DNA of 64,000 bases from an uncultured virus (IMG/VR IMGVR_UViG_3300022072_000005) (taxonomy: Duplodnaviria; Heunggongvirae; Uroviricota; Caudoviricetes). Under the pieces are notes generated by a model, which saw only the letters and a program-made list of their open reading frames with translations, searched no databases and had not been told where the DNA came from. The translations under genes were made by a program, and so were the position numbers. Positions 18,810-64,000 of this stretch are shown here, piece by piece (the first letter of the stretch is position 1; every line of letters begins with the position of its first letter). The DNA is taken from the IMG/VR virus record IMGVR_UViG_3300022072_000005. One strand, written 5' to 3'.

Positions 18810-18815
18810 ACAATA

Positions 18816-37300: not shown

Positions 37301-38046
37301 CCAGCACCAATACCAGTTGACCCGTTATTCCCAAGTATAACACCTTCAAGACCCCAAGAAAGGAGCATAGCTTTATTATCTTCTCTTCTATATTCATCAT
37401 TTCTTATAGAAGTAGTTACTGTTAATGTTCCAGTAAGTGTATCTGTTATATTTAATAAGTATTTACCGTCTGTGGTGGCAGAAAACGCTTGTATTTTATT
37501 ATAAATAGCGTTTTTTGTAGGGACTTCTAAGTTACCAATCCAAGAAGCACCATAAATTTCATCTTGGGTTTCCATTCCCGCAGAAGTGAAAGTTGCAACA
37601 GGGATATTAGAAACAACCATATCCACTTCATTATTACTTACCGAACCAATCTTTAAAATACTTGTATTCCAGTAAAAAGCACCATCTAAAGTAGCGTTAT
37701 TACTTTGAAATCTTATTCCACCACCTCTAGTGTTATCTCCTGAACCTCCTTTAATTAAAAGACTGTTTATATTTGCCCCAATTGCACCAAACTGAACACT
37801 AAAAGCTTCATTATGTTCAATTTGGTTAGCAGTGGTAGAACCATAAGCTAACCTTTGATTCGATGCGGAACCACTAATATATGTTGTTGAGTCTAAAGTA
37901 CCATCACCTTTAACAAATTGATTGTCGAGACCATCAACTGTTATAAATGCTGGTGATGTTGTATTTCCACTAACATTTAAGTAACTCTGTACCGTGGAAC
38001 CAGATTTAGATATAAATCCGTTACGTATATTAAATTCGTTTGCCAT
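34348..38046 (-). CDS. tail fibre / receptor-binding protein (1232 aa)
   Basis: Five (G/T)NVGIG / DIGIG..P..KL repeats, GDIQYNNNGSFGG, MANEF.IRNG N-terminus. Confidence 0.8.
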   Translation of the reverse strand: MANEFNIRNGFISKSGSTVQSYLNVSGNTTSPAFITVDGLDNQFVKGDGTLDSTTYISGSASNQRLAYGSTTANQIEHNEAFSVQFGAIGANINSLLIKGGSGDNTRGGGIRFQSNNATLDGAFYWNTSILKIGSVSNNEVDMVVSNIPVATFTSAGMETQDEIYGASWIGNLEVPTKNAIYNKIQAFSATTDGKYLLNITDTLTGTLTVTTSIRNDEYRREDNKAMLLSWGLEGVILGNNGSTGIGAGEWYAQMSANASNSLEAVQVGAEEGLYIYSNTGSNVANWATRHTIIMNANTFTYGGNNIFHDAYHPNADTWTTPRILTIGNTGKSVDGSTPVTWTLAEIGLGYGTVSQIPFMNAGGTDFEYNANWTFDSSTGTLKTPTSFTMGHGVDGTVSSTYNLFTEANTTSTKTINIGTGTPSNGSFTINLGSSASTTGGIALNNTVTMSTVATQASENTSLMINGSGVVGTRELGSNAFNSTAFSTGTGTTNYVSKWTSTTAQGNSLIYDNGTNVGIGTPIPIHKLHVKGTAASGTEEVVKIEGGSQYNGLILNNTSNRQSSIIFSHNSTDKWTTGIDFAGDGTSNFYLYDKVSLKVPLFFKDDGEVRIGGTSGYLDTQAVTIEPGGNVGIGTTSPNAKLSISRASGFSSIKAINDGYMMIDSNGQQLRLNNYVADDVVIAMGGGNVGIGTTAPSTKLHIKGFGTAGNTGLLRIDSGNTDGSAKIDFVDDGTIVGAINLFESTTLSLASQGDIAFVTNSVDTTGTNVKMTILGNGNVGIGVTDPSSELEVFGNIFTSQASGEVMTLGNSTYATKYITVREGANYAAKWGLQANTNLDANGTALMISSKPIAFTAGVTSATAFENVTDSHLKITSSGDIGIGTSIPNYKLSLQGPSTSYASGEQPVAEFKAGSDQRAFLKIKNTNSNPSAGAPRAGFDIDVPNHFTGGGARARTWLETSQITSSNGGGVTSLSVPKNFSIYVNNVAQTSASDGLFSSSSATPGSLAITVNSSGISVPDLAYGGTWNGSPQVPTRNAVWDKIESLVIGSGNPGGVNGDIQYNNNGSFGGFGQVNTYNIDLEKPLLLEPWTAHTVTNGTGAIGYGEHNRPEIIMNTTGHNLKRNSFEGQKGNSQYGSQQTITANITLDWRLGGCAFINLNSSVTITISSIPDGASGTILIINGGNNTPTIASTGLTPRTIGSTTAINSTSGSYSTITYKRFDTSLVLVYGQGS

Positions 38047-38105
38047 ATTTTTAATCCTTTTTCCAACTATCCAAAGGTATTATATATAAATATAAACTTT
38101 ATTAT

Positions 38106-44100: not shown

Positions 44101-47100
44101 TCATTAAAATCATGAGTATGCCCCGTAAGACTGTACCTTCCATCAAGGTTTTCAACAATAGTTCCACCTGAGACCCTAGTAAGGGTTAAATCACCATTTG
44201 TTGTGTTGAAATCACTATTTGATACATAATCATCTGATAAACCAATATGTGTATGCCCCGTTAGAGCGTATCTGTCGTCAAGGTTTATGGTAACTGTACT
44301 ACCTGATTGAAGGTTTAAATCTAAATCACCAGTTAATTCATTAAATGTACCACCAGTTAAATAATCATCAGATAAACCAATATGTGTATGTCCAGTAAGA
44401 CTATATCTATCATCTAAATTAATAGAAACTGTACTTCCACTTAATAAATTTAAATCTAAATTACCAGTTAATTCATTAAAATCACCAGAAACTAAATAAT
44501 CATCTGTATTTGGCGTTTCAGTAAACCCAGTTAAATATCTATCATCTAAATTAATAGTAACTGTACTACCTGATTGAAGATTTAAATCTAAATTACCAGT
44601 ATTTACATCAAAATCACCAGAAACTAAATAATCATCTGATAAACCAATATGAGTATGTCCAGTTAGGCTATATCTATCATCTAAATTAATGGTAACTGTA
44701 CTACCTGACTGAAGATTTAAATCTAAATCACCAGTATTTACATCAAAATCACCAGAAACTAAATAATCATCAGATAAACCAATATGAGTATGACCTGTTA
44801 ATGAATATCTATCATCTAAATTAATAGAAACAGTTGAACCTGACTGAAGATTTAAATCTAAATCACCAGTTAATTCATTAAATGTACCACTTGTTAAATA
44901 ATCATCTGTATTTGGCGTTTCAGTAAACCCAGTTAAATATCTACCATCTAAATCAACGGTAATATTATTATCATCACCAACATCATGTAATGTTAAAACA
45001 CCGTCACCCGTATTAAATGTCGCACCTGTAATTGAGTTATCATAAGCTATATCCCAATTAGTTGAATTATCAGTAAAATCAGTTATATCAGATATCTCAT
45101 GCGTATGTCCCGTAAGACTGTACCTATCATCTAAATTAATTGTAACTGTACTACCAGATAATAAATTTAAATCCAATTCACCAGTACTTGTATTAAAAGT
45201 ACCGCCAGTTAAATAATCATCAGATAAACCTACATGTGTATGTCCAGTTAATGAATATCTTCCATCAAGGTTGACCGAAACAGTGCTTCCACTTTGAAGT
45301 GTACTTTCAAATAAACCAGTTGAAGTATTAAATGTATGACCTGTTAAGTAATCATCTGATAAACCAATATGAGTATGCCCCGTAAGACTATATCTATCAT
45401 CTAAATTAACACTATACGTATTACCGCTTAACCTAGTAAATTCTAATTCACCAGTATTTGTATTAAATGTAGTTCCAGTAGTATAATCATCCGTTGGTAT
45501 GTAATCAGTTATTTCAGATATTGTATGAGTATGCCCAGTAAGGCTGTATCTATCATCTAAATTAATTGTAACCGTTGAACCTGATTGAAGGTTTAAATCT
45601 AAATCCCCAGTACTTACATTAAATGTACCACCTGTTAAATAATCATCTGTATTTGGTGTTTCAGTAAACCCAGTTAAATATCTATCATCTAAATTAATAG
45701 TAACCGTTGAGCCTGATTGAAGATTTAAATCTAAATCACCAGTTAATTCATTAAATGTACCACCTGTTAAATAATCATCTGATAAACCAATATGAGTATG
45801 TCCTGTTAGGCTATATCTATCATCAAGGTTTATTGTAACTGTACTTCCAGATAATAAATTTAAATCTAAATCACCAGTTAATTCATCAAAATCACCAGAA
45901 ACTAAATAATCATCTGTATTTGGTGTTTCAGTAAATCCAGTTAAATATCTACCATCTAAATCTTCGGTTATTGTATCACCTGATAATGTTCTTAACGTTA
46001 ATTCACCATTTAAAGTGTTAAATGTCATTCCTGTAACTACGTCACCTGAACCACCTACACCACCTGTACTATCAGTGAAATTAGCTGTTAAGGTACTACC
46101 ATCTTTTTGTTGAAGAGTTATAGTTTTAGTTGCACTACCCGTAACAGTCATCCCAGTAATTGAATCATTGTATGCTGTATCCCAATTACTTGTATCACCA
46201 GAAGTGAAACCTAAATCAGTATTATATGTTCCACCACTTAACCTAGTAAATTCAATAATACCACTTGAAGGGTTAAATGTAGTTCCAGTAGTATAATCAT
46301 CACCAGTTGTAGCTGATAATGGCAAATACCTACCATCAAGGTTAACTGAAACTGTACCACCTGATTGTAATGTACTTTCAAATAAACCATTTGAAGTGTT
46401 AAATGTATGGTCAGTTAAATAATCATCTGATAAACCAATATGAGTATGCCCCGTTAGAGCGTATCTGTCGTCAAGGTTTATTGTAACTGTACTTCCAGAT
46501 AATAAATTTAAATCTAAATCACCAGTTAATTCATTAAATGTACCACCTGTTAAATAATCATCTGTATTTAATATGGTTGAAGCTGAGATAGTTAAATATC
46601 TACCATCTAAATCAACGTTATATGTATCACCACTTAATCTAGTAAATTCAATAATACCATCAGAGGTGTTAAATGTAGCCCCAGTGGTGTAATCATCTGA
46701 TAAGCCGATATGAGTGTGTCCAGTAAGACTATATCTACCATCAAGGTTTTCAACAATAGTTCCACCTGATAATCTAGTTAATGTTAAATCACCAGTACTT
46801 ACATTAAATGTAGTTCCAGTGATGTAATCATCAGTATTAATAGTATCCCCTGAACTTGCCGTGTAGTTATCTGTTAAGTATTCCCTAGTAATTAATACCC
46901 TACCAGTAGTTTCATTACTAATTAAGGTTGTTGTTAAACTTGGTACCACTATTGTTCTATCGGTATTCAATAAAAGAACTTTATCTTGTTGACCTTCAGT
47001 TATTTGATTAGTTGCTGTGTTCCCTAATGAGAATACTATATCCCCAGTATTATCACCAACCATTATATTTAGGTTCTTACCTGTAATAAGACCATGCGCT

Positions 47101-49655
47101 CTTAACCATGGTGCAAAATAAGAATCATTTGGAATACCTATATAGACACCCTCATTGAATGCATCTCCATTAACAGTTGCTCTATAACCTGATATTGCAG
47201 CATTACCTACCGTATCTGTATTATTTACAAGATATCCTGTTGCCTTATTATTAGAACTCTCTACATAAAATCCTTCATTATCTGAAACAGGTTTAACTCG
47301 ATTTCCAAAATAAGAATTTAAAGGGTTTATTACTGACTCTACTGTTTCAGTAAACCCAGTTAAATACCTACCATCTAAATTAACACTTACTGTACCACCT
47401 GATTGTAATGTACTTTCAAATAAACCAGTACTTGTATTAAATGTATGACCTGTTATGTAATCATCTGTATTTGGTGTTTCAGTAAAACCAGTTAAATATC
47501 TATCATCAAGGTTTATGGTAACAGTTGAACCTGATTGAAGGTTTAAATCTAAATCACCAGTACTTGTATTAAATGTACCACCTGTTAAGTAATCATCAGA
47601 TAAACCAATATGAGTATGTCCTGTTAATGAATATCTATCATCTAAATTAACACTATATGTATCACCACTTAACCTAGTAAATTCTAATTCACCAGTATTT
47701 GCATTAAATGTAGTTCCAGTAGTATAATCATCATCAGTTGTAGCTGATAATGGTAAATATCTTCCATCTAAATTAACTGAAACCGTTGAACCTGATTGTA
47801 AGGTACTTTCAAATAAACCATTTGAAGTGTTAAATGTATGGTCAGTTAAATAATCATCTGTATTTGGTGATTCAGTAAACCCAGTTAAATACCTTCCATC
47901 AAGGTTTTCAACAATAGTTCCACCTGAGACCCTAGTAAGGGTTAAATCACCATTTGTTGTGTTGAATGTTACCCCACTTAAATAATCATCTGTATTTGGT
48001 GTTTCAGTAAACCCAGTCAAATATCTATCATCAAGGTTTATGGTAACTGTACTACCTGACTGAAGATTTAAATCTAAATCACCAGTTAATTCATTAAATG
48101 TACCACCTGTTAAATAATCATCTGTATTTGGTGTTTCAGTAAATCCAGTCAAATATCTATCATCTAAATTAATAGAAACTGTACTTCCTGATTGAAGGTT
48201 TAAATCTAAATCACCAGTACTTACATTAAATGTACCACCTGTTAAATAATCATCTGTATTTGGTGTTTCAGTAAATCCAGTTAAATATCTATCATCAAGG
48301 TTTATTGTAACTGTACTTCCTGATTGAAGGTTTAAATCTAAATCACCAGTACTTACATTAAATGTACCACCTGTTAAATAATCATCTGATAAACCAATAT
48401 GAGTATGTCCAGTAAGACTATATCTATCATCAAGGTTTATTGTAACTGTACTTCCTGATTGAAGGTTTAAATCTAAATCACCAGTACTTGTATTAAATGT
48501 ACCACCTGTTAAGTAATCATCAGATAAACCAATATGAGTATGTCCAGTAAGACTATATCTATCATCTAAATTTTCAGTTATTGTCGAACCTGATAATGTT
48601 CTTAATTCTAAATCACCATTTAAAGTGTTGAATGTCATTCCTGTAACTACATCACCTGAACCACCACCTGCATTATCAGTGAAATTAGCCGTTAAGGTAC
48701 TACCATCTTTTTGTTGAAGAGTAATAGTTTTAGAAACCGTACCAGTTACAGTTATCCCAGTAATAGAGTCATCATAAGCTATATCCCAATTACTTGTATC
48801 ACCAGAAGTGAAACCTAAATCAGTATTATATGTTCCACCACTTAACCTGGTAAATTCAATAATACCACTTGATGAGTTAAATGTAGTTCCAGTAGTATAA
48901 TCATCACCAGTTGTAGCTGATAATGGCAAATACCTACCATCTAAATTAGTGGTTATTGAATCACCTGAAACCGTTGTAATAATTAATTCACCAGTTGTTG
49001 CACTAAAAGTGGCACCAGTTATGAAATTATCTGTTGTAATCGCACTAAATTCAACTTCATATATATCACCAAGCTCATCCCTTGTTAAAACGGTTGTTAC
49101 GCCAGTTAAAGAATCTGGTTTATCAGCTAAAATTAATCGTTTTGTTCTTGTAATCCCTAAAACGTCAACCCAGATAGTTCTATCAGTAAAATCTGCCGAT
49201 TCACCACTTAATATTAATATATTATTACTGATAGTTTCACCAGTCCATTCTTGAACACCAACCTCTTCAATTGAAGTTACTGTAAAATCATATGAAGAAC
49301 CCGTATATGCGCTATATATTGTATTACCATCAATAAGGTAAGGTCCAATTCCTTGAAATCCAAACCCATTTTGTGTATCACCTGAAGTTGAATCTGTTAT
49401 TGCAACTAAAGTAATTGCACCTGAACCCATCCTAGAATCACCAAAAGTGATATTAGTTGTGTCAGAATTACCAGAAAAAGTAGAGACAATATTAATTAAA
49501 GTACTAGTTGTTGTAATAGAGGAATTTAAAACCCCACCAGTGAGCCCACTATAATGCACACCAAAGTCTGTTGACCCAGAGAGTTGTGTGTTAGTTGATT
49601 CATATTGTTTTACTTGTCGGTTATTTGAATAATCTATTTTAGTTACAAAAGACAT
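38106..49655 (-). CDS. giant repetitive fibre/adhesin-like virion protein (3849 aa)
   Basis: Dozens of ~44-aa DDY..TFN..G.L.L...SG.T...NLDxRY repeats with GHTH linkers (phage-tail-repeat-like), inserted beta-propeller-like and other domains; TATTTAT motif upstream. Confidence 0.8.
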   Translation of the reverse strand: MSFVTKIDYSNNRQVKQYESTNTQLSGSTDFGVHYSGLTGGVLNSSITTTSTLINIVSTFSGNSDTTNITFGDSRMGSGAITLVAITDSTSGDTQNGFGFQGIGPYLIDGNTIYSAYTGSSYDFTVTSIEEVGVQEWTGETISNNILILSGESADFTDRTIWVDVLGITRTKRLILADKPDSLTGVTTVLTRDELGDIYEVEFSAITTDNFITGATFSATTGELIITTVSGDSITTNLDGRYLPLSATTGDDYTTGTTFNSSSGIIEFTRLSGGTYNTDLGFTSGDTSNWDIAYDDSITGITVTGTVSKTITLQQKDGSTLTANFTDNAGGGSGDVVTGMTFNTLNGDLELRTLSGSTITENLDDRYSLTGHTHIGLSDDYLTGGTFNTSTGDLDLNLQSGSTVTINLDDRYSLTGHTHIGLSDDYLTGGTFNVSTGDLDLNLQSGSTVTINLDDRYLTGFTETPNTDDYLTGGTFNVSTGDLDLNLQSGSTVSINLDDRYLTGFTETPNTDDYLTGGTFNELTGDLDLNLQSGSTVTINLDDRYLTGFTETPNTDDYLSGVTFNTTNGDLTLTRVSGGTIVENLDGRYLTGFTESPNTDDYLTDHTFNTSNGLFESTLQSGSTVSVNLDGRYLPLSATTDDDYTTGTTFNANTGELEFTRLSGDTYSVNLDDRYSLTGHTHIGLSDDYLTGGTFNTSTGDLDLNLQSGSTVTINLDDRYLTGFTETPNTDDYITGHTFNTSTGLFESTLQSGGTVSVNLDGRYLTGFTETVESVINPLNSYFGNRVKPVSDNEGFYVESSNNKATGYLVNNTDTVGNAAISGYRATVNGDAFNEGVYIGIPNDSYFAPWLRAHGLITGKNLNIMVGDNTGDIVFSLGNTATNQITEGQQDKVLLLNTDRTIVVPSLTTTLISNETTGRVLITREYLTDNYTASSGDTINTDDYITGTTFNVSTGDLTLTRLSGGTIVENLDGRYSLTGHTHIGLSDDYTTGATFNTSDGIIEFTRLSGDTYNVDLDGRYLTISASTILNTDDYLTGGTFNELTGDLDLNLLSGSTVTINLDDRYALTGHTHIGLSDDYLTDHTFNTSNGLFESTLQSGGTVSVNLDGRYLPLSATTGDDYTTGTTFNPSSGIIEFTRLSGGTYNTDLGFTSGDTSNWDTAYNDSITGMTVTGSATKTITLQQKDGSTLTANFTDSTGGVGGSGDVVTGMTFNTLNGELTLRTLSGDTITEDLDGRYLTGFTETPNTDDYLVSGDFDELTGDLDLNLLSGSTVTINLDDRYSLTGHTHIGLSDDYLTGGTFNELTGDLDLNLQSGSTVTINLDDRYLTGFTETPNTDDYLTGGTFNVSTGDLDLNLQSGSTVTINLDDRYSLTGHTHTISEITDYIPTDDYTTGTTFNTNTGELEFTRLSGNTYSVNLDDRYSLTGHTHIGLSDDYLTGHTFNTSTGLFESTLQSGSTVSVNLDGRYSLTGHTHVGLSDDYLTGGTFNTSTGELDLNLLSGSTVTINLDDRYSLTGHTHEISDITDFTDNSTNWDIAYDNSITGATFNTGDGVLTLHDVGDDNNITVDLDGRYLTGFTETPNTDDYLTSGTFNELTGDLDLNLQSGSTVSINLDDRYSLTGHTHIGLSDDYLVSGDFDVNTGDLDLNLQSGSTVTINLDDRYSLTGHTHIGLSDDYLVSGDFDVNTGNLDLNLQSGSTVTINLDDRYLTGFTETPNTDDYLVSGDFNELTGNLDLNLLSGSTVSINLDDRYSLTGHTHIGLSDDYLTGGTFNELTGDLDLNLQSGSTVTINLDDRYALTGHTHIGLSDDYVSNSDFNTTNGDLTLTRVSGGTIVENLDGRYSLTGHTHDFNEITNTGHTHTISEITDYIPTDDYVSNGDFNTGTGEVTLTRLSGGTVVYDLDGRYSLTGHTHIGLSDDYLITHTFNTSTGLFESTLQSGSTVSVNLDGRYSLTGHTHIGLSDDYLVSGDFDVNTGDLDLNLQSGSTVTINLDDRYSLTGHTHTISEITDYIPTDDYTTGTTFNTNTGELEFTRLSGSTYSVNLDDRYSLTGHTHIGLSDDYITSGNFNTANGEVTLTRVSGGTVVYDLDGRYLNTSAYTDTFVTGFTYNGLTNTFDIERNEDLPDLSVTLTTVSGLTVNGDITVTGTGIFNEVVAVNVSATTINPVDFIQFNTGYTGNTIVEGRIYWDEDNGTLSLGMHGSNVQQQIGEELFYYVKNQSGATIENGRVVYAAGTLGSSGKILGEYMIADGTIPVKYTLGIATEDIINGDDGYVTDFGLVRGINATGAPYGETWNDGDLLWVSPTIVGGLTNIEPISPNLKIELAIVIHNDANGSVFVRPHRYPHFYDLQETTWSGGSESNLDIIQWDSTLSGWTITNTPSFISISATSISGDTIYSGDTNLTEIFSTTGHTHIGLSDDYLTGHTFNTSTGLFESTLQSGSTVSVNLDGRYSLTGHTHDFNEITNTGHTHTISEITDYIPTDDYLTGGTFNELTGDLDLNLLSGSTVSINLDDRYSLTGHTHNMISKTIDIYPTDLIGSGSTKDQVIQYINALSHVKTDDNSDLWFKVIPNYMLDFGSEGDFTGSPMALSMSSDGTILYLGLHNSNCTQYILSTPWDVTTATLTASTATLGQGGGLHVSPDGLHITYTNGDVTDGTVEIYSMSTPHDLSSLTLVSTTAFTQNLFRNELFMTDDGLNLYTSTGSNVRRYTLATPYNFSGVILSDSWNFNTTHGFTFSNDLKTFFVFQSGENLRQYNLTVAGDLTPVTLGNYSAEVDFDFVSGNFLKCQISPNGKRFVVTTYLSAPDVFSFGLSTADNIGAIIEATNADIVIYSDYYRLKNYPLGLISGVTSNDIDEITQIKNNDVTTLINLEEISRNDYVTDGSFNPANGEVTLTRLSGGTIVYDLDGRYSLTGHTHTISEITDYIPTDDYLTSGTFNELTGDLDLNLLSGSTVSINLDDRYSLNDHTHIGLSDDYLITHTFNTSTGLFESTLQSGSTVSVNLDGRYSLTGHTHTISEITDYIPTDDYVSSGSFNTSNGEVTLTRLSGGTIVYDLDGRYSLDDHTHIGLSDDYLVSGDFDVNTGDLDLNLKSGSTVTINLDDRYSLTGHTHIGLSDDYLTTHTFNTSTGLFESTLQSGSTVSVNLDGRYSLTTHTHIGLSDDYLTSGTFNELTGDLDLNLLSGSTVTINLDDRYLTDSTLQSVYEASTPSTITTDATRGSLKLKRGVGASVYPLEIQNSAGNSNFIVRDDGYFSGNGDMFVLGNITAQNSLITTSVSGFGANITTLFINGGAGDLTRGGGIGFKNNDGSIFGANYILNNKFRMGTVTAHDWEFVRTNVAVGGIDTNGLYLTGNIRASGATLSSLSTQNDELITLMIDGSGVVGTRELGTGAFVASGASNTDNYVISGDFNPANGEVTLTRLSGGTVVYDLDGRYSLTGHTHDFNEITNTGHTHTISEITDYVPTDDYLTSGTFNELTGDLDLNLLSGSTVSINLDDRYSLTGHTHTISEITDYIPTDDYLVSGTFNELTGDLDLNLQSGSTVSINLDDRYLTGFTEIVESVINPLDSYFGNRVKPVSDNEGFYVESALNKATGYLVNNTDTVGNAALSGFRAVINNDAFGKGIYVGVQNSNYYAPWLRERGHINGNAINITTGDNTGDIVFSLGNTASDNITEAAQDKVLLLNTDRTIVVPSLTTTLISNETTGRVLITREYLTDNYTANSGIDGVYLPLSGGTLTGPVTGTTFNVSNALLDYQENVNVDTGSPKVIGIISKLSYDAVFFDYVVKNGSNLRAGIVMAVHDGTSVTYTDTSTSDLGDTSGVSFTVDISGNDLRLNATVTTDNWIIKALIRGI

Positions 49656-55198: not shown

Positions 55199-55375
55199 AT
55201 GATAAGCATAGTATATTGTACAAGAGAACATAATCAAAAACATATTGACCATCTTAAAAAGATGGCTGGTCACCCTAAAGTTCAAGTAATTGAATATATT
55301 AATAATGGCGTATCATTAACCAAAGCTTATAATGAATTATTAGAGCAAGCTGAGTACGATATTGTCGTTTTCTGA
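55199..55375 (+). pseudogene. truncated paralogue of the downstream glycosyltransferase N-terminus
   Basis: MISIVYC...KKMAGHPKV...SLTKAYN..L.QA.YDIVVF* aligns with MISIVC...KKMAGHPKV...SLTEIYN..L..A.YDIVVFLHHD and stops just before the catalytic HxD. Confidence 0.75.
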
Positions 55376-55549: not shown

Positions 55550-57199
55550 ATGATAAGTATTGTTTGCTCTTCACAAAACGATTTAAATGAATTTAGTAAA
55601 CATATAAAGAAAATGGCTGGTCACCCTAAAGTTGAATTTCTTGGTTATAAGAATGAAGGTAAATTCTCGTTAACTGAAATATATAATAGGGGTTTGAATG
55701 AAGCTAAATATGATATCGTGGTTTTTTTACACCACGACATCGAAATTCAAACTAAGCAATTCGCTAAAAAATTACAGAAAAATTATGACACCACTAATTA
55801 TGGTGTTTTAGGTGTTGCTGGAACTAAATTGTTACCAGAGACAGGTAAATGGTGGTCAGACCCCAAACAAATGTTTGGTAGAGTATGGCACACACATCAA
55901 GATAAAAAATTCTTATCTAAATATAGTGATGACCAAGGTAATAACATTGAAGAGGTAGTTTCGGTTGATGGTGTTTTCTTTTCAGTTATGAAATCTAGAT
56001 TGAAAGAAAATTTTGATGAATCTGTTGAGGGATTTCATTTTTATGATATTGATTTCTGTTTTAAGAATTATTTAAAAGGTGTTAAAGTTGGCGTTCACAC
56101 TAATATTGTTATTAACCACATGTCTATTGGTGAAACTAATGACCAATGGGAAATAAATAGAGTTTTATTTTCTGAAAAATATAAAGATGACTTACCAGTT
56201 AAGATTGACAAAGAATTTGGTGTTAATCATAAATTTAATGTTTTAATTGCTTGCATAAATTTTAATAGTTATACTGGCTCTGAATTATATAACTTTGAAT
56301 TAGCTAAAGGTTTGATTGAAAAAGGTTGTGATGTAACCATATGTTCTAACATCGGGGGTGAGCTTTCATTAAAAGCAAAAAGGTTAGGTATTAAATTAGC
56401 TGATATTAACGAACCACCAGGTTATAAAAAGGGTGATGGTCAATGGCAAATACAACAACCTGATGGTAAATTAGAGCAATCAGTTGAAGGTAGAATGTAC
56501 CAAATTGGTGCGGTTAACTTTGATATTATGCATTTAAGTCATACACCAGTTGCTAAACTAATGACTCAATTATATCCTCAAATCCCAGCAATATCATCTA
56601 TACATTCTGAAGTTATTTCATTGGAACACCCGATATTACATGATAATATTAAAAAATATATCGCTATTCGACCTGAAATTAAGGATTACTTAATTTCGGA
56701 GCATAACATACCTGAAGAAAAAATTAAGGTTGTTTACAACCCAATTGATTCAAGTAGATTTAACACTAATTACACTAAAGTTGTAAATGGTAAGAAAGTC
56801 ACTTTATTTGTTGGTACTATTGATTATTTAAGAAAAAATATGTTAGTTGATTTAGTTGGTAAAACTAAGGAAGAAAATGGTGAGTTATGGATTGTTGGTA
56901 GAGAGAATGGTGTTACTGCATCTGAAATAATTAATGATGAAAAACATGTAATTTATTATGGCCCACAAGCTAACATTGAGAGTTATATGAAAAAAGCTGA
57001 TGTGACTGCTGGTATACTTTTAGGTAGAACAACTATCGAAGGTTGGATGTGTGGTAAAGGTGGTTGGATATATAATGTGGATGATAAAGGGTTTGTTTTA
57101 GGTAAAGAATTTCATAAAGTACCTGAAGATATAAATAAATTTAATTCTGAGTCAATTATAACTCAAATTATTGATGAATATAAAGAAATATTAAAATGA
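55550..57199 (+). CDS. bifunctional glycosyltransferase (N-terminal GT2-like, C-terminal GT4-like)
   Basis: Start moved to ATG 55550; VFLHHDI, VDGVF, FHFYDIDF; then TGSELY, YNPID, GRTTIEG. Confidence 0.85.
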   Translation: MISIVCSSQNDLNEFSKHIKKMAGHPKVEFLGYKNEGKFSLTEIYNRGLNEAKYDIVVFLHHDIEIQTKQFAKKLQKNYDTTNYGVLGVAGTKLLPETGKWWSDPKQMFGRVWHTHQDKKFLSKYSDDQGNNIEEVVSVDGVFFSVMKSRLKENFDESVEGFHFYDIDFCFKNYLKGVKVGVHTNIVINHMSIGETNDQWEINRVLFSEKYKDDLPVKIDKEFGVNHKFNVLIACINFNSYTGSELYNFELAKGLIEKGCDVTICSNIGGELSLKAKRLGIKLADINEPPGYKKGDGQWQIQQPDGKLEQSVEGRMYQIGAVNFDIMHLSHTPVAKLMTQLYPQIPAISSIHSEVISLEHPILHDNIKKYIAIRPEIKDYLISEHNIPEEKIKVVYNPIDSSRFNTNYTKVVNGKKVTLFVGTIDYLRKNMLVDLVGKTKEENGELWIVGRENGVTASEIINDEKHVIYYGPQANIESYMKKADVTAGILLGRTTIEGWMCGKGGWIYNVDDKGFVLGKEFHKVPEDINKFNSESIITQIIDEYKEILK

Positions 57200-57912
57200 T
57201 AATAGTAACAACACTATACAATGGTGAAGAGTATATTGAAAAATGTATTACATCATTAAAAGAACAAACACATAAAGATTTTACATGTTATATCACAGAT
57301 GATTTATCAACAGACGGTTCTGTTGATAAAACTAAAGAATTAATTGAAGGTGATGATAGATTTATACTTATAGAAAACAAAACAAAACATTATCAATCGG
57401 GTAACTATGACCAAGTAATTAGGAATAACTCCATTATTGACGATAATGAAGTTATTGTAGAGGTTGATGGTGATGACTGGTTACCAGATAGTGAAACGTT
57501 AGAGCGAGTTGCTAAGGTTTATTCTGATGATGATATATGGATAGCTAATGGGCGTTTTATTTATTCACATGGTGCTATGGGGTTTGCCCAAGAACAAATA
57601 ATAAATAACATTAGAAAGGCTACATTTACAGCATCTCATATTAGGACGTGGAGAGCATTTTTATGGCGAAATATTAAGTTGGGTGATTTAAAAGATGAAA
57701 ATGGTGACTATTGGGACGCTGCTTGTGATTTGGCGTTTATGTATCCAATGTTAGAAATGTCAGGGGATGAACATTATAAATTTATGACTGAAATTAATTA
57801 TGTTTATAACGAACAAAACCCATTAAATGAACATAAAGTTATTATGGGTGATGTTAATAAAAATGTTGGTAAAATTCGTAGTATGCCCCCATATAAAAGG
57901 TTATATAAATGA
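57196..57912 (+). CDS. GT2 glycosyltransferase
   Basis: YNGEEYIEKCI.SL..Q, DDLSTDGS, VDGDDWL. Confidence 0.9.
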   Translation: MIIVTTLYNGEEYIEKCITSLKEQTHKDFTCYITDDLSTDGSVDKTKELIEGDDRFILIENKTKHYQSGNYDQVIRNNSIIDDNEVIVEVDGDDWLPDSETLERVAKVYSDDDIWIANGRFIYSHGAMGFAQEQIINNIRKATFTASHIRTWRAFLWRNIKLGDLKDENGDYWDAACDLAFMYPMLEMSGDEHYKFMTEINYVYNEQNPLNEHKVIMGDVNKNVGKIRSMPPYKRLYK

Positions 57913-58712
57913 TTTATTGTAATTTAAAAGGTGGATTGGCAAATATGTTTTTTGAAATTGCCGCAGTTAAATCTATGGCAATAGATAAGGGGGTTGATTG
58001 TAGTTTCCCTAATATTACAGCGCAATTAAATTTAGTTAATAACGATAACAAATATAACCCAATTATAAAACATGGTTGGGAATATATGGAAATATTTAAT
58101 ATTCTGAATACTACGCCACCAAGAGAAGTACTCCCAACCTTTACTTACCCTCTTCATTACCAACCAATTGATTTACCAAAAGATAATTTCATTGTAAATG
58201 GGTTTTTTCAAAGTGAAAAATATTTCATACATAATAGGGCTGAAATTCTAGAATTTCTTAAAATTCCAGATAGTATTCTTAAAATAATCAACGAGAAGTA
58301 TTCTACAATTTTAAGAACTAGGACTACATCATTACACGTCAGACGTGGTGATTATGTAAGGCACCCTAACCATTATCATCAACAAACAATTGAATATTTT
58401 AATGAAGCTATTGATAGGTTAAAAGATATTACGGACACCGTAGTTATTTTTAGTGATGACATACCATGGTGTAAAAATAATTTAAAATATGAAAATGTTG
58501 TTTATATTTCAGATGAAAAGGATTATATTGAAATATACCTAATGTCTCTTTGTGAAAATAACATTACTGTTAACTCATCATTTTCTTGGTGGGGTGCTTG
58601 GTTAAATCAAAATGAAAATAAAGTGGTTATTGGTCCTAAAAAATGGTTTGGGCCAGCATTAGCCAAATATAACGCTAACGATATAGTACCTGAAACATGG
58701 ATAAAAATTTAA
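57909..58712 (+). CDS. GT11 alpha-1,2-fucosyltransferase-like
   Basis: GGLANMFF, GFFQSEKYF, LHVRRGDY, FSDDIPWC, NSSFSWWGAWL, P.KWF. Confidence 0.9.
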   Translation: MIYCNLKGGLANMFFEIAAVKSMAIDKGVDCSFPNITAQLNLVNNDNKYNPIIKHGWEYMEIFNILNTTPPREVLPTFTYPLHYQPIDLPKDNFIVNGFFQSEKYFIHNRAEILEFLKIPDSILKIINEKYSTILRTRTTSLHVRRGDYVRHPNHYHQQTIEYFNEAIDRLKDITDTVVIFSDDIPWCKNNLKYENVVYISDEKDYIEIYLMSLCENNITVNSSFSWWGAWLNQNENKVVIGPKKWFGPALAKYNANDIVPETWIKI

Positions 58713-58713
58713 T

Positions 58714-59133
58714 ATGGAAAAAATATATTCTAAAATAGAACCTGATAAACTATTACATATAATCAATAGATTAGATGAAATTGAAGGTAGAACTGAAGTA
58801 GTCGATGAAAATAATTTCATTCAATGTGCAACATTAAAAATGGAGAAAGGGAAAACCTTCCCACCTCATAGGCACATAACCAAAGATAGACATTATCCAG
58901 AACAGATAGCTCAAGAATCTTGGGTGGTAATTAGGGGAAGTGTGAAGTGCATATTTTATGATTTAGATAATACAATAATTGCGGAGCCGATTTTAAAGGC
59001 TGGTGACGCTAGTTTTACACTATACGGTGGTCACACTTACTTAATTCTAGAAGATGATACAATTGTATACGAATATAAAACTGGACCGTATGAGGGACAG
59101 AAATTAGATAAAACATTTATAGATGAGAAATGA
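58714..59133 (+). CDS. cupin-fold protein (WbuC-like / sugar isomerase-like)
   Basis: PHRH, QESWVVIRG, GGH, EYKTGPY. Confidence 0.7.
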   Translation: MEKIYSKIEPDKLLHIINRLDEIEGRTEVVDENNFIQCATLKMEKGKTFPPHRHITKDRHYPEQIAQESWVVIRGSVKCIFYDLDNTIIAEPILKAGDASFTLYGGHTYLILEDDTIVYEYKTGPYEGQKLDKTFIDEK

Positions 59134-60067
59134 TAATGTAACAATCCTTGGAACAGGTTCATACTTACCAAGCAATGTGGTAACAAATGAAGATTTGTGT
59201 AAACACATCACAACAACACCAGAATGGGTTGAAGATAAATTAGGTATAATTGAACGTAGAATAACAGTAGATGAATCTACAGCCGATTTAGCGTATCAAG
59301 CCGCAATTAGGACTTTAGCCAATTCATTAACCGATAAAGAAGAATTAGATTTAATCATAGTGGTCACATCAAGTCCTGACCAGATATCACCATCAACTGC
59401 ATGTACGTTACATAAGATGTTAGACATTAAGCGAGACGTACCTTCATTTGACATTAATGCTGTATGCGCTGGATTTGTATATGCAATGTCATTCGCATCA
59501 ACATTAATTAGTAGTGGAACTTATAAAAAAATTCTAATTGTTGCAAGCGAAACATATTCCAAACATACAAATGTTCATGATAGAAATTGTGTATTTTTTG
59601 GTGATGGAGCTGGTGGCTTAGTTTTAGGCACATCAAAAAACGGTTGGAACGTTAGTAATATAGCGTCAAATGGAAATGGTTCAGGTATGACAGGATTTAG
59701 AATGCCGTTATCGGACCCGTTTACTATGAAGGGTAAGGAAGTATGGGAACAAGCAATACGTGTGTTACCAGAATCTATTAAACTAGTAATGGAAGAAGCT
59801 GAACTTGAGGTAGATGATATTAAATTATTAGTGCCACATCAACCAAGTATTAATATACTAAAAGTGGTTGCAAAGGAAGTCGGAATGTCGATGGATAACG
59901 TAAAGTTGGTGCAAGATAAATATGGAAATATAGCTGGCGCATCAATACCAATTGCGTTAAATGATGCATTCGAGAATAACGAAATTGAAAAGGGTGATAA
60001 AATTGTATTATCGGCTGTAGGTTCTGGATGGGCTTGGGGTTCGATGGTAATAAATTACGAAGATTAA
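59123..60067 (+). CDS. fabH: 3-oxoacyl-ACP synthase III (FabH family)
   Basis: GTGSYLP, GIIERR, DINAVCAGF (Cys), FGDGAG, VPHQ (His), YGN..GASIP (Asn). Confidence 0.92.
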   Translation: MRNDNVTILGTGSYLPSNVVTNEDLCKHITTTPEWVEDKLGIIERRITVDESTADLAYQAAIRTLANSLTDKEELDLIIVVTSSPDQISPSTACTLHKMLDIKRDVPSFDINAVCAGFVYAMSFASTLISSGTYKKILIVASETYSKHTNVHDRNCVFFGDGAGGLVLGTSKNGWNVSNIASNGNGSGMTGFRMPLSDPFTMKGKEVWEQAIRVLPESIKLVMEEAELEVDDIKLLVPHQPSINILKVVAKEVGMSMDNVKLVQDKYGNIAGASIPIALNDAFENNEIEKGDKIVLSAVGSGWAWGSMVINYED

Positions 60068-60068
60068 T

Positions 60069-60725
60069 ATGAAAACAATTGCAGTATTTGGTGGAACTGG
60101 TGGGTTAGGTAAAAAACTAGTCCCTTTATTGGCTGAAAAATATCATGTTATACCGTTAGGTAGTTCTGTCGTTGATATTACCAATTTAGAATCAGTTAAG
60201 CAATGGTTTTCTGATGCGGAAAAACATTACAATGTTGATATTGTTTTGAATATGAGTGGTGTTAAATATGATACATTTTTAAGTAAAATCACTTCTGATG
60301 ACGTAGAAGACATTGATAAGATGTTAGATGTTAACATTAAAGGGAATATAAATATGTTAGCCGCATGTTTACCTCATATGATTGAAAGAGGGTATGGAAG
60401 AGTGATTGCGATATCATCTGTTTTTTCTGAAATGAACGTACCTAAGAATTCAATATACTGTGCGTCAAAAGCATTCGTAGATAGATTGATAGGTACCGCC
60501 AATAAAGAAAACGTAAGATTCGGCATTACATGCAATACAATCCAATTAGGTTATTGGGATGGTGGTATGGCATATAGAGTAGATGAGAAGTACGTTCAAA
60601 TGGCTAAAGATAAAGTAGGGTTAAAGAGATTTGGTACCGCTGAAGAATTATATAATACGGTAAATTTCATTGTAGACAATGAATATGTATCTGGAACAAA
60701 TTTAAAAATAGATGGGGGATTATAA
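60069..60725 (+). CDS. short-chain dehydrogenase/reductase (FabG-like)
   Basis: GGTGGLG, ISS, YCASK, G..LKIDGGL. Confidence 0.85.
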   Translation: MKTIAVFGGTGGLGKKLVPLLAEKYHVIPLGSSVVDITNLESVKQWFSDAEKHYNVDIVLNMSGVKYDTFLSKITSDDVEDIDKMLDVNIKGNINMLAACLPHMIERGYGRVIAISSVFSEMNVPKNSIYCASKAFVDRLIGTANKENVRFGITCNTIQLGYWDGGMAYRVDEKYVQMAKDKVGLKRFGTAEELYNTVNFIVDNEYVSGTNLKIDGGL

Positions 60726-61245
60726 GAATTTTAAAAAAGTGGGTGAAGACGTTAGAGTAGATTCGTCAGCTCAAATAGTTAGACCAGAATTAATAGAATT
60801 AGGAAGTCACATTTCAATTGACATGTGTGTGTATTTCTCTACTTCAGCTATACTTGGAGATTATATTCATATAGCCCCACAAGTTAGTATAATTGGTGGT
60901 GGTGATTCAGTATTAATAATGGAAGATTTCAGTGCAATTGCTACTGGTACACGAGTTATATGTGCAAGCGATGACTTCAAAAAAGGTTTCCTGAATCCAT
61001 TTATACCGAGAGAATATAGAAATGTGATTAATGAACCAGTGATATTTAGGAAGTATTCATCTACTGGAGTTAATTCAGTTGTAATGCCAGGTGTTACATT
61101 AGCTGAAGGTTCTGTACTTGGGGCTAATTCATTATTAACAAAAGATACTGAACCATGGGGAATTTATGTTGGTTCGCCAGCGAAAAGAATTGCAACAAGA
61201 GATAAAGAGTTAATTTTAAAAGGAGCTAAAGAGCTTGGGTATTAA
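60712..61245 (+). CDS. left-handed beta-helix (hexapeptide) acyltransferase
   Basis: LGDYIHIAP, GVNSVVMPGVTLAEGSVLGANS, WGIYVGSPAKRI. Confidence 0.88.
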   Translation: MGDYKNFKKVGEDVRVDSSAQIVRPELIELGSHISIDMCVYFSTSAILGDYIHIAPQVSIIGGGDSVLIMEDFSAIATGTRVICASDDFKKGFLNPFIPREYRNVINEPVIFRKYSSTGVNSVVMPGVTLAEGSVLGANSLLTKDTEPWGIYVGSPAKRIATRDKELILKGAKELGY

Positions 61246-61247
61246 TT

Positions 61248-62066
61248 ATGAGTAAATATATAACTAATGAAATTTTCCCACATGGGTTAGGGACTAGAAT
61301 GTTTTTATTGACAAACGCTATTGGTTATTCTATTATCACTAATACTGAATTTGTAATAACACCTTTTTCTCATCAAGCAGTACCAAACGAATTTAGTGAT
61401 AAAAATTCAATGACCAAAAGAGTTGATTACTTATCTGATTGTAAGAGATGGGATTTGATACTAAATTTAGAGAAAAAAAAAATAACCGACATTGAAGATT
61501 TATCTGAGGTGTTATATTTGTCACACCCATCGTCAAATAATGATGTACCACCAATTGAGGGACAGTTTGAATTATATAACAAAATTAGAGGGTTTCGTGA
61601 TGAAATAAAAAAAGATTATTTGGTCATACCAACTAAAGTTACTAGTGACGTTATTAACGTAAGCGTTCATATTAGAAGAGGTGATATAATCAATGATAGA
61701 CATAGATTTATAGGTAATAAGTATTATTTAGATAGTCTTAACATTTTAGAGACGACTTTAAAAGAAAGAGGTATTAAGTATGATATAACTATATACGTAC
61801 AAAAAGAAGGTTTTGTCGCCACAGGTTTTGAAGATTTTAATATTAAATACGATACCGATATCTCTGATAATGAAACGTGGGTTGCTATGGTAAACTCTGA
61901 CATTCTATTAGGGAGTAACAGTGCTTTCAGTACTAGTGTTGGTATGTTGATGGATGGAATTTTCATTCACCCAACTAGTAATAATTTTACCGATATGACC
62001 GATTGGTTATACGGTAACGAGTTAGACAAGAACTCAATTAATAAAAAATTAGGATATGAATCATAA
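61248..62066 (+). CDS. fucosyltransferase-superfamily glycosyltransferase (GT11/GT23-like)
   Basis: GLG.R, VHIRRGD, YY, M..SDIL...S.FS. Confidence 0.7.
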   Translation: MSKYITNEIFPHGLGTRMFLLTNAIGYSIITNTEFVITPFSHQAVPNEFSDKNSMTKRVDYLSDCKRWDLILNLEKKKITDIEDLSEVLYLSHPSSNNDVPPIEGQFELYNKIRGFRDEIKKDYLVIPTKVTSDVINVSVHIRRGDIINDRHRFIGNKYYLDSLNILETTLKERGIKYDITIYVQKEGFVATGFEDFNIKYDTDISDNETWVAMVNSDILLGSNSAFSTSVGMLMDGIFIHPTSNNFTDMTDWLYGNELDKNSINKKLGYES

Positions 62067-62880
62067 ATTAGAATTTGTAAAAATATCTTCAAAACATGAA
62101 GTAGGTGGTGTTGGATTTGCTGGTAATATGTTTATCATATTGAGCACATTATCACTTGTGGGACAGGATGAAAAACTTTATATTGATATGAGTAAAACAG
62201 ATTGTATCTGTACGGAAAAAGGACCGTTGTTACATAACACAAATAATTGTTGGGAATATTACTTTGACCAAGTTAATATTGAAGGTGAAACCACTAACAA
62301 CATGAATAGTTTAGTTATAGGTGGGCTAACATACGAAAATAGAGATATGTATATGTACCCAGAAAATTTCATAGCACTTAAAGAAAAATTTAATTATAAT
62401 TTCCAATTAAAATCTTATATTAAAACATTAATAGATGATTTCTATGACAATAATATTAAAGGTAAAGTAACATTAGGTGTTCAAGTTAGATTAACTGATA
62501 TGAAACACCATCATAATGTATCACCATTGAGTAGTTACGTTATAAAAATAAATGAAATTTTATTAAAACACCCAGAAATAGAACAAATATTTTTAGCCAC
62601 AGATGATAGTTTAGTTATTCCAGAATTAAGAGCTGCGTTAGACGTTCCAATTATTTGTTACGATAATATGTTTAGAGCTGATAAAGCTAATAGACATCAT
62701 GACCCACACGCTAGGTTGCATGATACTAGAAAAAACCATAGATATAAATTAGGTATTGAATGTTTACAAGAAATCCTTACATTAACAAAATGTGATTACT
62801 TATTGAAAGCAGATTTATCGTCAATTTCTATTGTCGCTAGTATTCTAAGTGAAAATATTAAAACCGTATATAAAGTATGA
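62056..62880 (+). CDS. NodZ / GT23-like fucosyltransferase
   Basis: GFAGN, WEYYFDQ, LGVQVRLTD, IFLATDD, L.KCDYL....S. Confidence 0.7.
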   Translation: MNHKLEFVKISSKHEVGGVGFAGNMFIILSTLSLVGQDEKLYIDMSKTDCICTEKGPLLHNTNNCWEYYFDQVNIEGETTNNMNSLVIGGLTYENRDMYMYPENFIALKEKFNYNFQLKSYIKTLIDDFYDNNIKGKVTLGVQVRLTDMKHHHNVSPLSSYVIKINEILLKHPEIEQIFLATDDSLVIPELRAALDVPIICYDNMFRADKANRHHDPHARLHDTRKNHRYKLGIECLQEILTLTKCDYLLKADLSSISIVASILSENIKTVYKV

Positions 62881-63563
62881 TTTATATAATTGGAGATAGT
62901 CATGTATCAGTATTTTCTGGAACCGATAAAGGGTTGAATGGGTTAAGACACATTCAACCAGAATTTGGCACTTGTTATACTTTAAGTGGTGGTTCGTTAA
63001 GACCACACAATGTATTCGAACAGAGAATACCGTATTTTTGTCCAATTAAAATTGGTTCAAATACGGCTTATAATTCATTCGATAAATTACCAGTAATTGA
63101 ACAGGTAATTGAAGAATATGAGATATCAGAAAAAGATTATATATTCTTATGTTTTGGTGAAATAGATATTAGAAACCATATTGGGTTTAATGCTGAAGCT
63201 GAAGATATATTAATAACTGAAGGGATATATAGGTGTGTTGATAGATATATGAAAACCGTAGATTATCTAAATGATAAATACTCTAATGTTGGAGTATATG
63301 GTTCACCACCATCATCACGTAAAGGTGATAGCCCAGTTAAAGAATATAAAGATGAAATTTTTAGAAATGTTATGACAAAGGAATTTAATAAACACCTTAA
63401 ATATAACTGTAATAAGAATGATATTATATTTAAAGATATTTCAGAAAAATTAATGTTAGAAAATGGTAGGACTGACCCTAAATTTATTATGGATGATATC
63501 CATTTATCACAAGAGGTAATGCCGTTTTTAAAAGAAGAATTTAAAGATTTAATAGATGAATGA
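62877..63563 (+). CDS. SGNH/GDSL-fold esterase or acyltransferase-like protein
   Basis: IIGDSH, FGEIDIR.H, DDIHL. Confidence 0.65.
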   Translation: MIYIIGDSHVSVFSGTDKGLNGLRHIQPEFGTCYTLSGGSLRPHNVFEQRIPYFCPIKIGSNTAYNSFDKLPVIEQVIEEYEISEKDYIFLCFGEIDIRNHIGFNAEAEDILITEGIYRCVDRYMKTVDYLNDKYSNVGVYGSPPSSRKGDSPVKEYKDEIFRNVMTKEFNKHLKYNCNKNDIIFKDISEKLMLENGRTDPKFIMDDIHLSQEVMPFLKEEFKDLIDE

Positions 63564-64000
63564 TAGGGTGGAAATAAATATGATAGGTGGTGGGTTTCAA
63601 CATAGTCCGTCTACATCTGGTTACGAACCATTATATGTAAAATGGGTCAAGGGTAGCCATACAGCACCAATATCTATGCACATCGACTTTCTAATTAAAA
63701 CACCACCAAATCCAAATACAATAAATTATGGTTGGTTATCTGAATCTAAAGACATCAACACTGGGTTATATGAGTGGTGTGCTAATAACTTAGATTTCTT
63801 AAAGAAACATTATAAGTTAGTATTCACACATGACGTTAGTTTAACCGAACTATCTAACATCTTTGCGTTACAAGTTAGTGGTAAATCATTTATCGCTGAA
63901 AGTGATGGGTTGGTGTACCCTAAGACTAAATTGGTTTCCATGATTGCGTCTAATAAAAAGATGTGCCCAGCTCATATTTATAGGCATGAAATGATTGCTA
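63556..64000 (+). CDS. GT10-like fucosyltransferase (partial, runs off right edge)
   Basis: Not in the ORF track. MNDRVEINMIGGGFQH...GWLSES...VFTHD...KTKLVSMIASNKKMCPAH.YR resembles the N-terminal half of phage GT10-type proteins. Confidence 0.55.
   Translation, partial: MNDRVEINMIGGGFQHSPSTSGYEPLYVKWVKGSHTAPISMHIDFLIKTPPNPNTINYGWLSESKDINTGLYEWCANNLDFLKKHYKLVFTHDVSLTELSNIFALQVSGKSFIAESDGLVYPKTKLVSMIASNKKMCPAHIYRHEMIA

Follow-up and report, generated by a model that had tools for sequence, protein, structure and literature searches.

Gene Content of the Island and Its Phage Context

We analyzed a 64,000-nucleotide stretch of DNA (hereafter the window) from an uncultured virus of the class Caudoviricetes (IMG/VR record IMGVR_UViG_3300022072_000005), in which a FabH-like 3-ketoacyl synthase III (KAS III), a short-chain dehydrogenase/reductase (SDR) and a predicted sugar acyltransferase are encoded side by side within a block of glycosyltransferase (GT) genes. 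The window covers the first 64 kb of a contig that is 118,629 bases long and ~33% complete by CheckV. Pfam matches to gp23 capsid, portal, terminase, sheath, and PolB genes indicate a T4-like jumbo phage, and the nearest cultured matches of the capsid protein are in a Microcystis phage (42%) and the Flavobacterium phage Immutovirus (39%). The phage appears lytic, as no integrase is among the Pfam matches of this ~33% complete contig. Near-identical copies of the island were found in three IMG/VR contigs, and short contigs of it were also present in sequencing runs of other studies. The runs that hold the island are mainly freshwater, sediment, and aquatic metagenomes; in one RNA run, 0.05 of the words and a small number of short contigs were present, which does not amount to evidence of transcription.

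Eleven tightly packed open reading frames (ORFs), all on the + strand and overlapping or 1–2 nt apart, occupy positions 55550..64000 of the window. Their order and family calls agree with an initial annotation of this region, which had ended the block at 64000; the block in fact runs beyond the window edge with DUF1796, DegT, and GDP-mannose 4,6-dehydratase (Gmd) genes on the same strand. The features are as follows (window coordinates unless stated).

55199..55375, + strand: 58-amino-acid stub from a displaced GT2/GT4 allele; an AT-rich spacer follows
55550..57199, + strand: GT2-like plus GT4 fusion glycosyltransferase, left anchor (PF13712, PF13439)
57196..57912, + strand: GT2 glycosyltransferase, variable part (PF00535, E 9e-19)
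57909..58712, + strand: GT11 fucosyltransferase-family enzyme (PF01531, E 1.5e-25; phrog_2644)
58714..59133, + strand: WbuC-family cupin (TIGR04366, over the NCBIfam cut-off)
59123..60067, + strand: KAS III, FabH-like (TIGR00747, 302 bits, over the NCBIfam cut-off)
60069..60725, + strand: FabG-like SDR, predicted 3-ketoacyl reductase (Pfam, motifs, FabG-like scores)
60712..61245, + strand: AntD-like left-handed beta-helix (LbH, hexapeptide) protein, predicted sugar N-acyltransferase (PDB profile matches, Pfam)
61248..62066, + strand: GT11-like enzyme (no Pfam match; ESM Atlas 0.98; HIRRGD)
62056..62880, + strand: weakly NodZ/GT23-like enzyme (PF05830, E 7e-4, below the curated cut-off; QVRLTD)
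62877..63563, + strand: SGNH-fold enzyme, acetyl esterase or transferase (PF13472, E 1.5e-4, below the curated cut-off; GDSH...DDIH)
63556..64368, + strand: GT10-family enzyme, of which the window holds the 5' part to 64000 (PF00852, E 1e-7 once the full ORF is read)
contig 64358-65071, + strand: DUF1796 protein (PF08795)
contig 65061-65654, + strand: half-length (197 amino acids) DegT-family pyridoxal phosphate (PLP) enzyme (PF01041)
contig 65728-66726, + strand: Gmd, right anchor (PF16363, E 1e-114; TIGR01472, 381 bits against a cut-off of 415)

The GT2/GT4 fusion has copies of 41–52% identity at the same place in related phages. In these relatives the left-hand fusion and the right-hand Gmd-PhoH end are constant and the middle is variable. 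Judged by its sequence, the block is thus the variable middle of a phage glycan island. The stub is 53% identical to the N-terminus of the full GT2/GT4 gene downstream and 60% identical to the alleles of the related loci L102 and L115; it is likely the scar of a cassette exchange at the left edge of the island. The predicted structure of the product of 61248..62066 has a TM-score of about 0.7 to GT11 models in the ESM Atlas. A dUTPase and an HD protein are encoded just upstream of the island, and two more glycosyltransferase-like genes (one GT2 by Pfam, one GT4-like by eye) lie beyond PhoH. The islands of L102 and other relatives also contain genes for carbamoyltransferase, sulfotransferases, FkbM methyltransferases, B12 radical-SAM, PIG-L deacetylase, SIS, and DAHP/KdsA-family enzymes.

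The FabH-SDR-Acyltransferase Module

A profile scan for viral relatives of FabH gave 72 viral loci, a few of them in giant-virus bins, and a genome scan over 32 of 64 parts gave 399 cellular relatives, of which the best 80 were used. Fifty distinct viral FabH proteins of the main branch described below formed 41 groups at 90% identity, 36 of them with enough flanking sequence, and linkage was counted within 7 kb of FabH. The control set, chosen without regard to FabH, came from the top 80 of 603 viral Gmd loci: 79 were analyzed, and the 57 of at least 15 kb were counted. DegT and PhyH were counted by profiles and GNAT from single-linkage labels. Among 49 related records, at least 15 have a gp23 capsid over the cut-off.

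The Cys-His-Asn triad of FabH noted in the initial annotation is intact (C115/H239/N269), as are the SDR motifs (GGTGGLG...YCASK), and the FabG-like scores of the SDR are all below the equivalog cut-offs. Among the best 80 of 399 cellular relatives the closest FabH is 44% identical to that of the window, compared with 42–100% for most viral copies. In a tree of 141 rows, 51 of the 57 distinct viral FabH proteins fell into one branch (SH-aLRT 96) that also took in a single long-branch bacterial row. The second tree (69 rows, quick LG+G4) additionally included FabH of E. coli and, from five Bacteroidota genomes, 17 FabH-like proteins; it contained an all-viral branch with 31 of 35 viral rows, including that of the window (SH-aLRT 98), and grouped the viral proteins with bacterial paralogs carrying an HQPS motif (SH-aLRT 99), to the exclusion of plsX-linked FabH and the FabH of L183 linked to an acyl carrier protein (ACP). 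Both trees were quick searches without bootstrap, and VioS was not among their rows. The FabH of the window itself carries HQPS and not the housekeeping motif HQAN. Tree position and motif support the view that the FabH/SDR pair is not housekeeping; the grouping with housekeeping fatty-acid enzymes that the initial annotation had named as the contrary outcome was not seen for FabH. Compared with L102, dN/dS is 0.09 for FabH and 0.09–0.35 across six core genes, with synonymous sites near saturation, and these six genes are under purifying selection.

Among the bacterial HQPS paralogs, an SDR gene follows in 31 of 79, and many of these loci (16 sampled) also hold DegT, FdtA, Wzx, GNAT/LbH, and PIG-L genes. 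L188, L216, and about 35 similar Flavobacteriales loci carry a second HQPS FabH with an enoyl-reductase-like SDR of ~273 amino acids outside sugar loci. FabH genes are also present in the giant-virus bins L159, L162, L163, and L168, some beside SDR or LbH genes. Those of L159 and L162 lie within the main viral branch, which suggests either exchange between phages and giant viruses or a binning error. Matches to FabH also came from 25 records of a GenBank phage set (at most 41%), but these appear to stem from host DNA in the records and were set aside.

The acyltransferase gave its best PDB matches to the entries beginning with 3VB (E 3e-28, residues 7–168 aligned), with the next family at 1e-8. 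Entry 3vbn is AntD (PMC6031040). The score against the PDB chain named VioB was 7e-5, and that against TIGR03570 (VioB/PglD type) was 41 bits, below the cut-off of 161. D87 and D88 of the AntD-like DDF insertion loop are nearly invariant. The protein is therefore closest to AntD-type enzymes rather than to the VioB type and is predicted to be a sugar N-acyltransferase.

An acyltransferase gene accompanies FabH in 35 of the 36 distinct viral loci (LbH in 31, of which 28 are AntD-like, and GNAT in 4, in each case directly after FabH-SDR). The same 36 loci hold an SDR in 25, any DegT in 33, a cupin in 20, and Gmd in 19; the SDR is thus optional in relatives. In L138, L139, L143, L146, and L147, a GNAT of 192 amino acids with only generic GNAT matches follows FabH-SDR in place of LbH, and a full-length DegT takes the place of the short one.

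The control set presented the module from the other side. Fifty-two control Gmd loci were free of FabH, and 47 of these had a cupin, 42 a short DegT, and 12 an AntD-like gene, indicating that cupin, short DegT, and Gmd form the common core and that FabH is an optional addition. By comparison, all five FabH-containing Gmd loci, one being the window's own copy, had an AntD-like gene. We then counted the genes that could modify ("cap") the amino group in the stretch around cupin and DegT. Among 47 distinct core loci, the cap gene was a methyltransferase (~180 amino acids) in 18, LbH alone in 9, FabH plus LbH in 5 (again including the window), GNAT in 4, and a formyltransferase in 2, with none recognized in 9. 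Acyl and methyl types occurred together in 0 of 47 (Fisher P-value = 1e-6, inflated by kinship), but phages that share their flanks differ in the cap they carry (e.g., L048, L060, and L115). The simplest reading of this mutual exclusion is that the enzymes compete for one amine, and the FabH-SDR-AntD-like trio is best read as one allele of a swappable cap.

The AntD-like proteins differ with the company they keep. FabH-linked and FabH-free members mostly occupy separate branches (2 changes vs 11.1 when shuffled), and D88 is kept in 37 of 40 FabH-linked proteins vs 1 of 12 FabH-free ones. A PhyH-type dioxygenase, whose best PDB match is phytanoyl-CoA hydroxylase, was found in 4 of 5 FabH loci vs 0 of 42 others in the control core set, and core loci anchored on FabH have it in 22 of 26 cases; the window holds the SDR-only version.

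Proposed Acyl-Amino-Sugar Route and Its Alternatives

The best PDB profile match of the short DegT is perosamine synthase (E 5e-14). Its D85, S104, and K109 are invariant in 32 aligned homologs, and the lysine aligns with that of perosamine synthase. On this basis it is predicted to be a sugar 4-aminotransferase. The profile comprises 198 positions and ends near residue 263 of the 373-amino-acid perosamine synthase. Proteins of ~200 amino acids without the C-terminal domain constitute a conserved DegT family (contig 65061-65654; L251:9004-9591; L252:9986-10630), with further members in two huge uncultured phages and, among cultured phages, in S-SCSM2R and Immutovirus. The cupin has invariant residues H52, H54, E68, and H107 and a beta-rich model (pLDDT 87); a PDB profile search returned only repeat-protein noise, and its Atlas neighbors are unnamed viral clusters and Cupin_2/lyxose-isomerase proteins. 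With Gmd in the same block, the amino sugar is probably GDP-linked rather than dTDP-linked. The multi-fucosylated glycan proposed in the initial annotation is not established: the island has four fucosyltransferase-family genes, and GDP-fucose synthase, which some relatives have, was not found in the ~33% complete contig, so the sugar that these enzymes transfer may be fucose from the host, the acyl-amino sugar, or some other sugar.

We propose, with a probability of roughly 0.6, that the FabH-SDR-AntD-like trio synthesizes a short 3-hydroxyacyl group with which it acylates the amine of a GDP-4-amino-4,6-dideoxyhexose, for use in a phage-built glycan. Gene content, intact motifs, purifying selection, linkage, tree position, and the mutual exclusion of caps are the observations from which we infer this chemistry. 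Gmd would convert GDP-mannose to the 4-keto-6-deoxy sugar, and the short DegT would aminate it at position 4 to give perosamine, or an epimer if the cupin acts first; GT10/GT11-family enzymes would be expected to accept an L-configured epimer rather than D-perosamine. KAS III would condense an acyl-CoA with malonyl-CoA without an ACP, in the manner of NphT7, and the SDR would reduce the product to a 3-hydroxyacyl group, 3-hydroxybutyryl being the simplest guess; most relatives would add the PhyH-type hydroxylase. The AntD-like enzyme would then N-acylate the nucleotide sugar, and soluble phage glycosyltransferases would assemble the glycan in the cytoplasm, with virion proteins as the most likely acceptor.

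The thioester carrier is one uncertain part of this route. The initial annotation had seen neither an ACP nor an aminotransferase gene in the window. For ACP this extends to the whole ~33% complete contig (Pfam six-frame search), and the packed block leaves no room for one; the DegT gene, on the other hand, starts 1 kb beyond the window edge. A search of the contig remainder thus recovered DegT and Gmd, but neither ACP nor GDP-fucose synthase, and a phosphopantetheinyl transferase was not found in the contig either. Of 49 related records, one has an ACP gene, which adjoins a FabH from outside the main viral branch; the complete 340-kb phage G044 yielded no ACP. When 72 + 79 viral and 80 bacterial loci were searched with a profile built from three ACP sequences, a weak test, it recovered nothing beyond the sequences it was trained on. 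The single phage ACP (L151:8837-9133, phage G040) has an extra His/Cys-rich insertion and lies beside a WcbI gene as well as the FabH; it appears to be a separate, ACP-bearing acquisition. K214 and R249 of E. coli FabH, which we take to be ACP-docking residues although we found no confirmation in print, align to E209 and N244 in the FabH of the window. AntD binds CoA and dTDP (PMC6031040), and NphT7 is a KAS III homolog that condenses acetyl-CoA with malonyl-CoA without an ACP (PMC5509993). The missing ACP and the NphT7 precedent favor CoA thioesters, with host ACP as a live rival, and we consider it slightly better than an even chance that KAS III uses malonyl-CoA without an ACP.

With regard to the acceptor, the island proteins have no clear membrane segment (maximal 19-residue hydropathy 1.63), and neither a Wzx flippase nor an initiating phosphoglycosyltransferase was found in any of the 5 records searched, which points to a soluble acceptor. 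Two Ser/Thr-rich (23–25%) proteins of 3,849 and 1,232 amino acids are encoded about 6 and 17 kb upstream (window 34348-49655, - strand). The larger has cupin-like and phage-tail-repeat matches, and a DXD-motif glycosyltransferase gene (33720-34364) directly follows the 1,232- and 3,849-amino-acid genes. Throughout the contig, the motif ATATTTAT occurs about 7–70 nt (mostly 20–50) before structural genes, in 24 upstream regions with about 8-fold enrichment, for example, upstream of 7172, 9664, 38046, and 49655 (- strand), the terminase, and the prohead protease. It is likely a late promoter; its sequence closely resembles that of the T4 late promoter in reverse complement. Virion proteins are our tentative first choice of acceptor, at somewhat less than even odds. 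The host surface or other host molecules are possible but less probable, some other acceptor is doubtful, and DNA is the least favored because thymidylate synthase scores as canonical.

Several observations weigh against the proposed route. The SDR is absent from 11 of 36 viral FabH loci, and one Flavobacteriales group of HQPS paralogs is paired with an enoyl-reductase-like SDR outside sugar loci. Changes in the acyl pocket point in opposite ways (F87 to S; L142 to Y and L189 to F), so the pocket does not predict the primer of KAS III. The contig is ~33% complete, its relatives are mostly fragments, and an ACP could also be supplied by the host. Of 50 main-branch viral FabH proteins, 15 retain Arg or Lys at the 249 position, and an acidic residue at the 214 position is also common in bacterial paralogs, which makes the docking-residue argument weak. 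The short DegT lacks the C-terminal domain of the two-domain fold of about 370–390 amino acids and has Val after D85-A-A, where members of the DegT family usually have Gln or Glu; it may therefore not be an aminotransferase. RmlB and RmlC are encoded elsewhere on the same contig, so a dTDP-sugar could be the acceptor of the acyl group, as for AntD. Finally, ATATTTAT precedes the island in 0 of 27 loci with gmd and 0 of 10 with GT2/GT4, and co-regulation with virion genes is thus not favored.

The same chemistry might instead draw on host malonyl-ACP for KAS III and the SDR, so that no viral ACP is needed. Both characterized precedents include an ACP (PMC3927599, PMC6519341), KAS III passes the fabH cut-off, a basic residue persists at position 249 in the minority of viral copies mentioned above, and phage G040 shows that an ACP can accompany a FabH of another branch. 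However, the precedents encode a dedicated ACP, whereas the main viral branch has none in any record searched; moreover, the acyltransferase is of the CoA-binding AntD type and a phytanoyl-CoA-hydroxylase-like gene tracks FabH. We regard this variant as unlikely, and to about the same degree we doubt that the acyl sugar is destined, via host export, for surface polysaccharide or proteins of the host, where it would mask receptors or exclude superinfection. Such a role is the usual proposal for the "cell wall synthesis and modification" clusters of cyanomyoviruses (PMC12801897), the nearest bacterial FabH-SDR pairs lie in polysaccharide loci, and the lack of the structural-gene motif ATATTTAT ahead of the island agrees with it. 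It is opposed by the missing flippase, initiating transferase, and membrane proteins and by the apparently lytic lifestyle, for which the contig is incomplete; in addition, the closest proven systems decorate the particle, namely giant-virus fibrils (PMC10117803) and mycobacteriophage capsids (cited in PMC12619734).

Hypermodification of phage DNA against restriction is considerably less probable. Phage glycosyltransferases often modify DNA (PMC12619734), and a dUTPase and an HD protein are encoded just upstream, but thymidylate synthase is canonical by score, no hydroxymethylase or TET-like gene is among the Pfam matches in the scanned part, and at least eight glycosyltransferase genes together with the swapping of whole blocks would better fit a surface glycan. 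Least probable of all is an auxiliary metabolic role of FabH and SDR in boosting the fatty-acid synthesis of the host, or a recent arrival of the pair as passengers from a host locus. Although the pair passes or resembles FabH/FabG models and one bacterial paralog group is paired with an enoyl-reductase-like SDR, the viral FabH stands apart from plsX-linked FabH (SH-aLRT 99), its best cellular match is 44% identical vs 42–100% for most viral copies, FabD, FabF, and FabZ were each found in 0 of 5 records searched, an acyltransferase gene almost always adjoins, and selection is purifying. The proposal of the initial annotation that FabH does not serve lipid synthesis was sustained by this evidence and by the linkage to sugar acyltransferases and DegT.

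Beyond the preferred acyl-amino-sugar route in this one phage, it is possible, though we hold it only tentatively, that large aquatic phages have in common with some giant viruses a CoA-only route to acylated amino sugars that evolved in viruses, with its own KAS III branch and a half-size PLP aminotransferase, in which an exchangeable amine cap (methyl, acetyl, formyl, or hydroxyacyl) would define virion "serotypes" in the manner of O-antigen R-group genes.

Comparison with Known Systems

The initial annotation had likened the module to the vio island of Pseudomonas syringae pv. tabaci 6605 (vioA, M, T, S, B, R, and acp; PMC3927599). The likeness in gene set stands: both have KAS III, ketoreductase, LbH acyltransferase, and DegT, and vio yields an N-(3-hydroxybutyryl) 4-amino-4,6-dideoxyhexose on a protein glycan. 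The identity with vio does not, as the vio island has a dedicated ACP, a dTDP-glucose-derived sugar, and flagellin as the acceptor, whereas in the phage island no ACP was found, Gmd is adjacent, the sugar is probably GDP-linked, DegT is half-length, and the acyltransferase is of the AntD type. From its genes, the phage island would work like the vio island but is not a member of it.

The closest solved relative of the acyltransferase is AntD of the D-anthrose pathway of Bacillus cereus, with which it shares the DDF loop; AntD is a CoA- and nucleoside diphosphate sugar-binding N-acyltransferase in a pathway with a 3-hydroxy-branched acyl-CoA (PMC6031040, PMC8141488). Only the acyltransferase is common to this pathway and the phage island. 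To our knowledge, a FabH/SDR donor pair is not part of the D-anthrose pathway. The O-polysaccharide R-group genes wfpC-G of Flavobacterium psychrophilum similarly combine KAS enzymes, a reductase, and an acyltransferase, with a predicted hydroxyacyl group on an amino sugar, and swaps of such R-group genes alter antigenicity (PMC6519341). In contrast to the phage genes, they are bacterial, encode an ACP and a PglD-type transferase, and use a UDP-sugar for lipopolysaccharide exported by Wzx/Wzy. NphT7 resembles the phage KAS III by the proposed reaction alone and belongs to a mevalonate pathway context (PMC5509993).

Virus-encoded, clade-variable sets of nucleotide-sugar and glycosyltransferase genes are already known from Megavirinae (PMC10117803), the S-SCSM2R/P-SSM2 cyanomyoviruses (PMC12801897), and Immutovirus. 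S-SCSM2R and Immutovirus share the short DegT with the phage island (54% and 29%, respectively), but FabH has no match in the cultured S-SCSM2R/P-SSM2 and Immutovirus phages. The main texts of PMC10117803, PMC12801897, and PMC12619734 do not mention a 3-oxoacyl synthase, and fabH is likewise absent from those of PMC10117803 and PMC12619734. By shared gene content alone, the phage also resembles the moraphages, freshwater jumbo phages with four core glycosyltransferases, dUTPase, PhoH, ClpA, PolB, and variable islands, whose predicted hosts are Bacteroidota (PMC12619734); the genome of the window is estimated to be larger (118.6 kb at 33%). Together with the nearest cellular FabH, this resemblance leads us to guess that the host belongs to Bacteroidota.

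Viral glycan clusters as such are therefore not new (PMC10117803, PMC12801897, PMC12619734). No description of a phage KAS III glycan module was found in the literature searched, which covers few subscription journals, and the ACP-free viral KAS III branch, its link to AntD, the half-length DegT, and the exclusive cap slot appear to be new. Automatic annotation would file the phage FabH as an auxiliary metabolic gene for fatty acids, whereas the evidence points to glycan tailoring, and the proposed route names a concrete product for islands that are listed without explanation in papers on aquatic jumbo phages (PMC12619734, PMC12801897). Should the glycan be placed on the virion, cassette exchange would be a means for phages to vary their particle glycans. 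The short DegT and the ACP-free KAS III would be new enzymes for the synthesis of amino sugars and 3-hydroxyacyl-CoA, and the cultured carriers of the short DegT, S-SCSM2R and Immutovirus, make the question of the target testable.

Two further features of the contig were noted. Two tandem, closely similar unannotated genes (343 and 247 amino acids) lie among the tail/neck genes at window 17778-19559 (- strand), and at contig 79295-84141 (+ strand) an SF2 helicase gene is followed by genes for four repeat-rich proteins.

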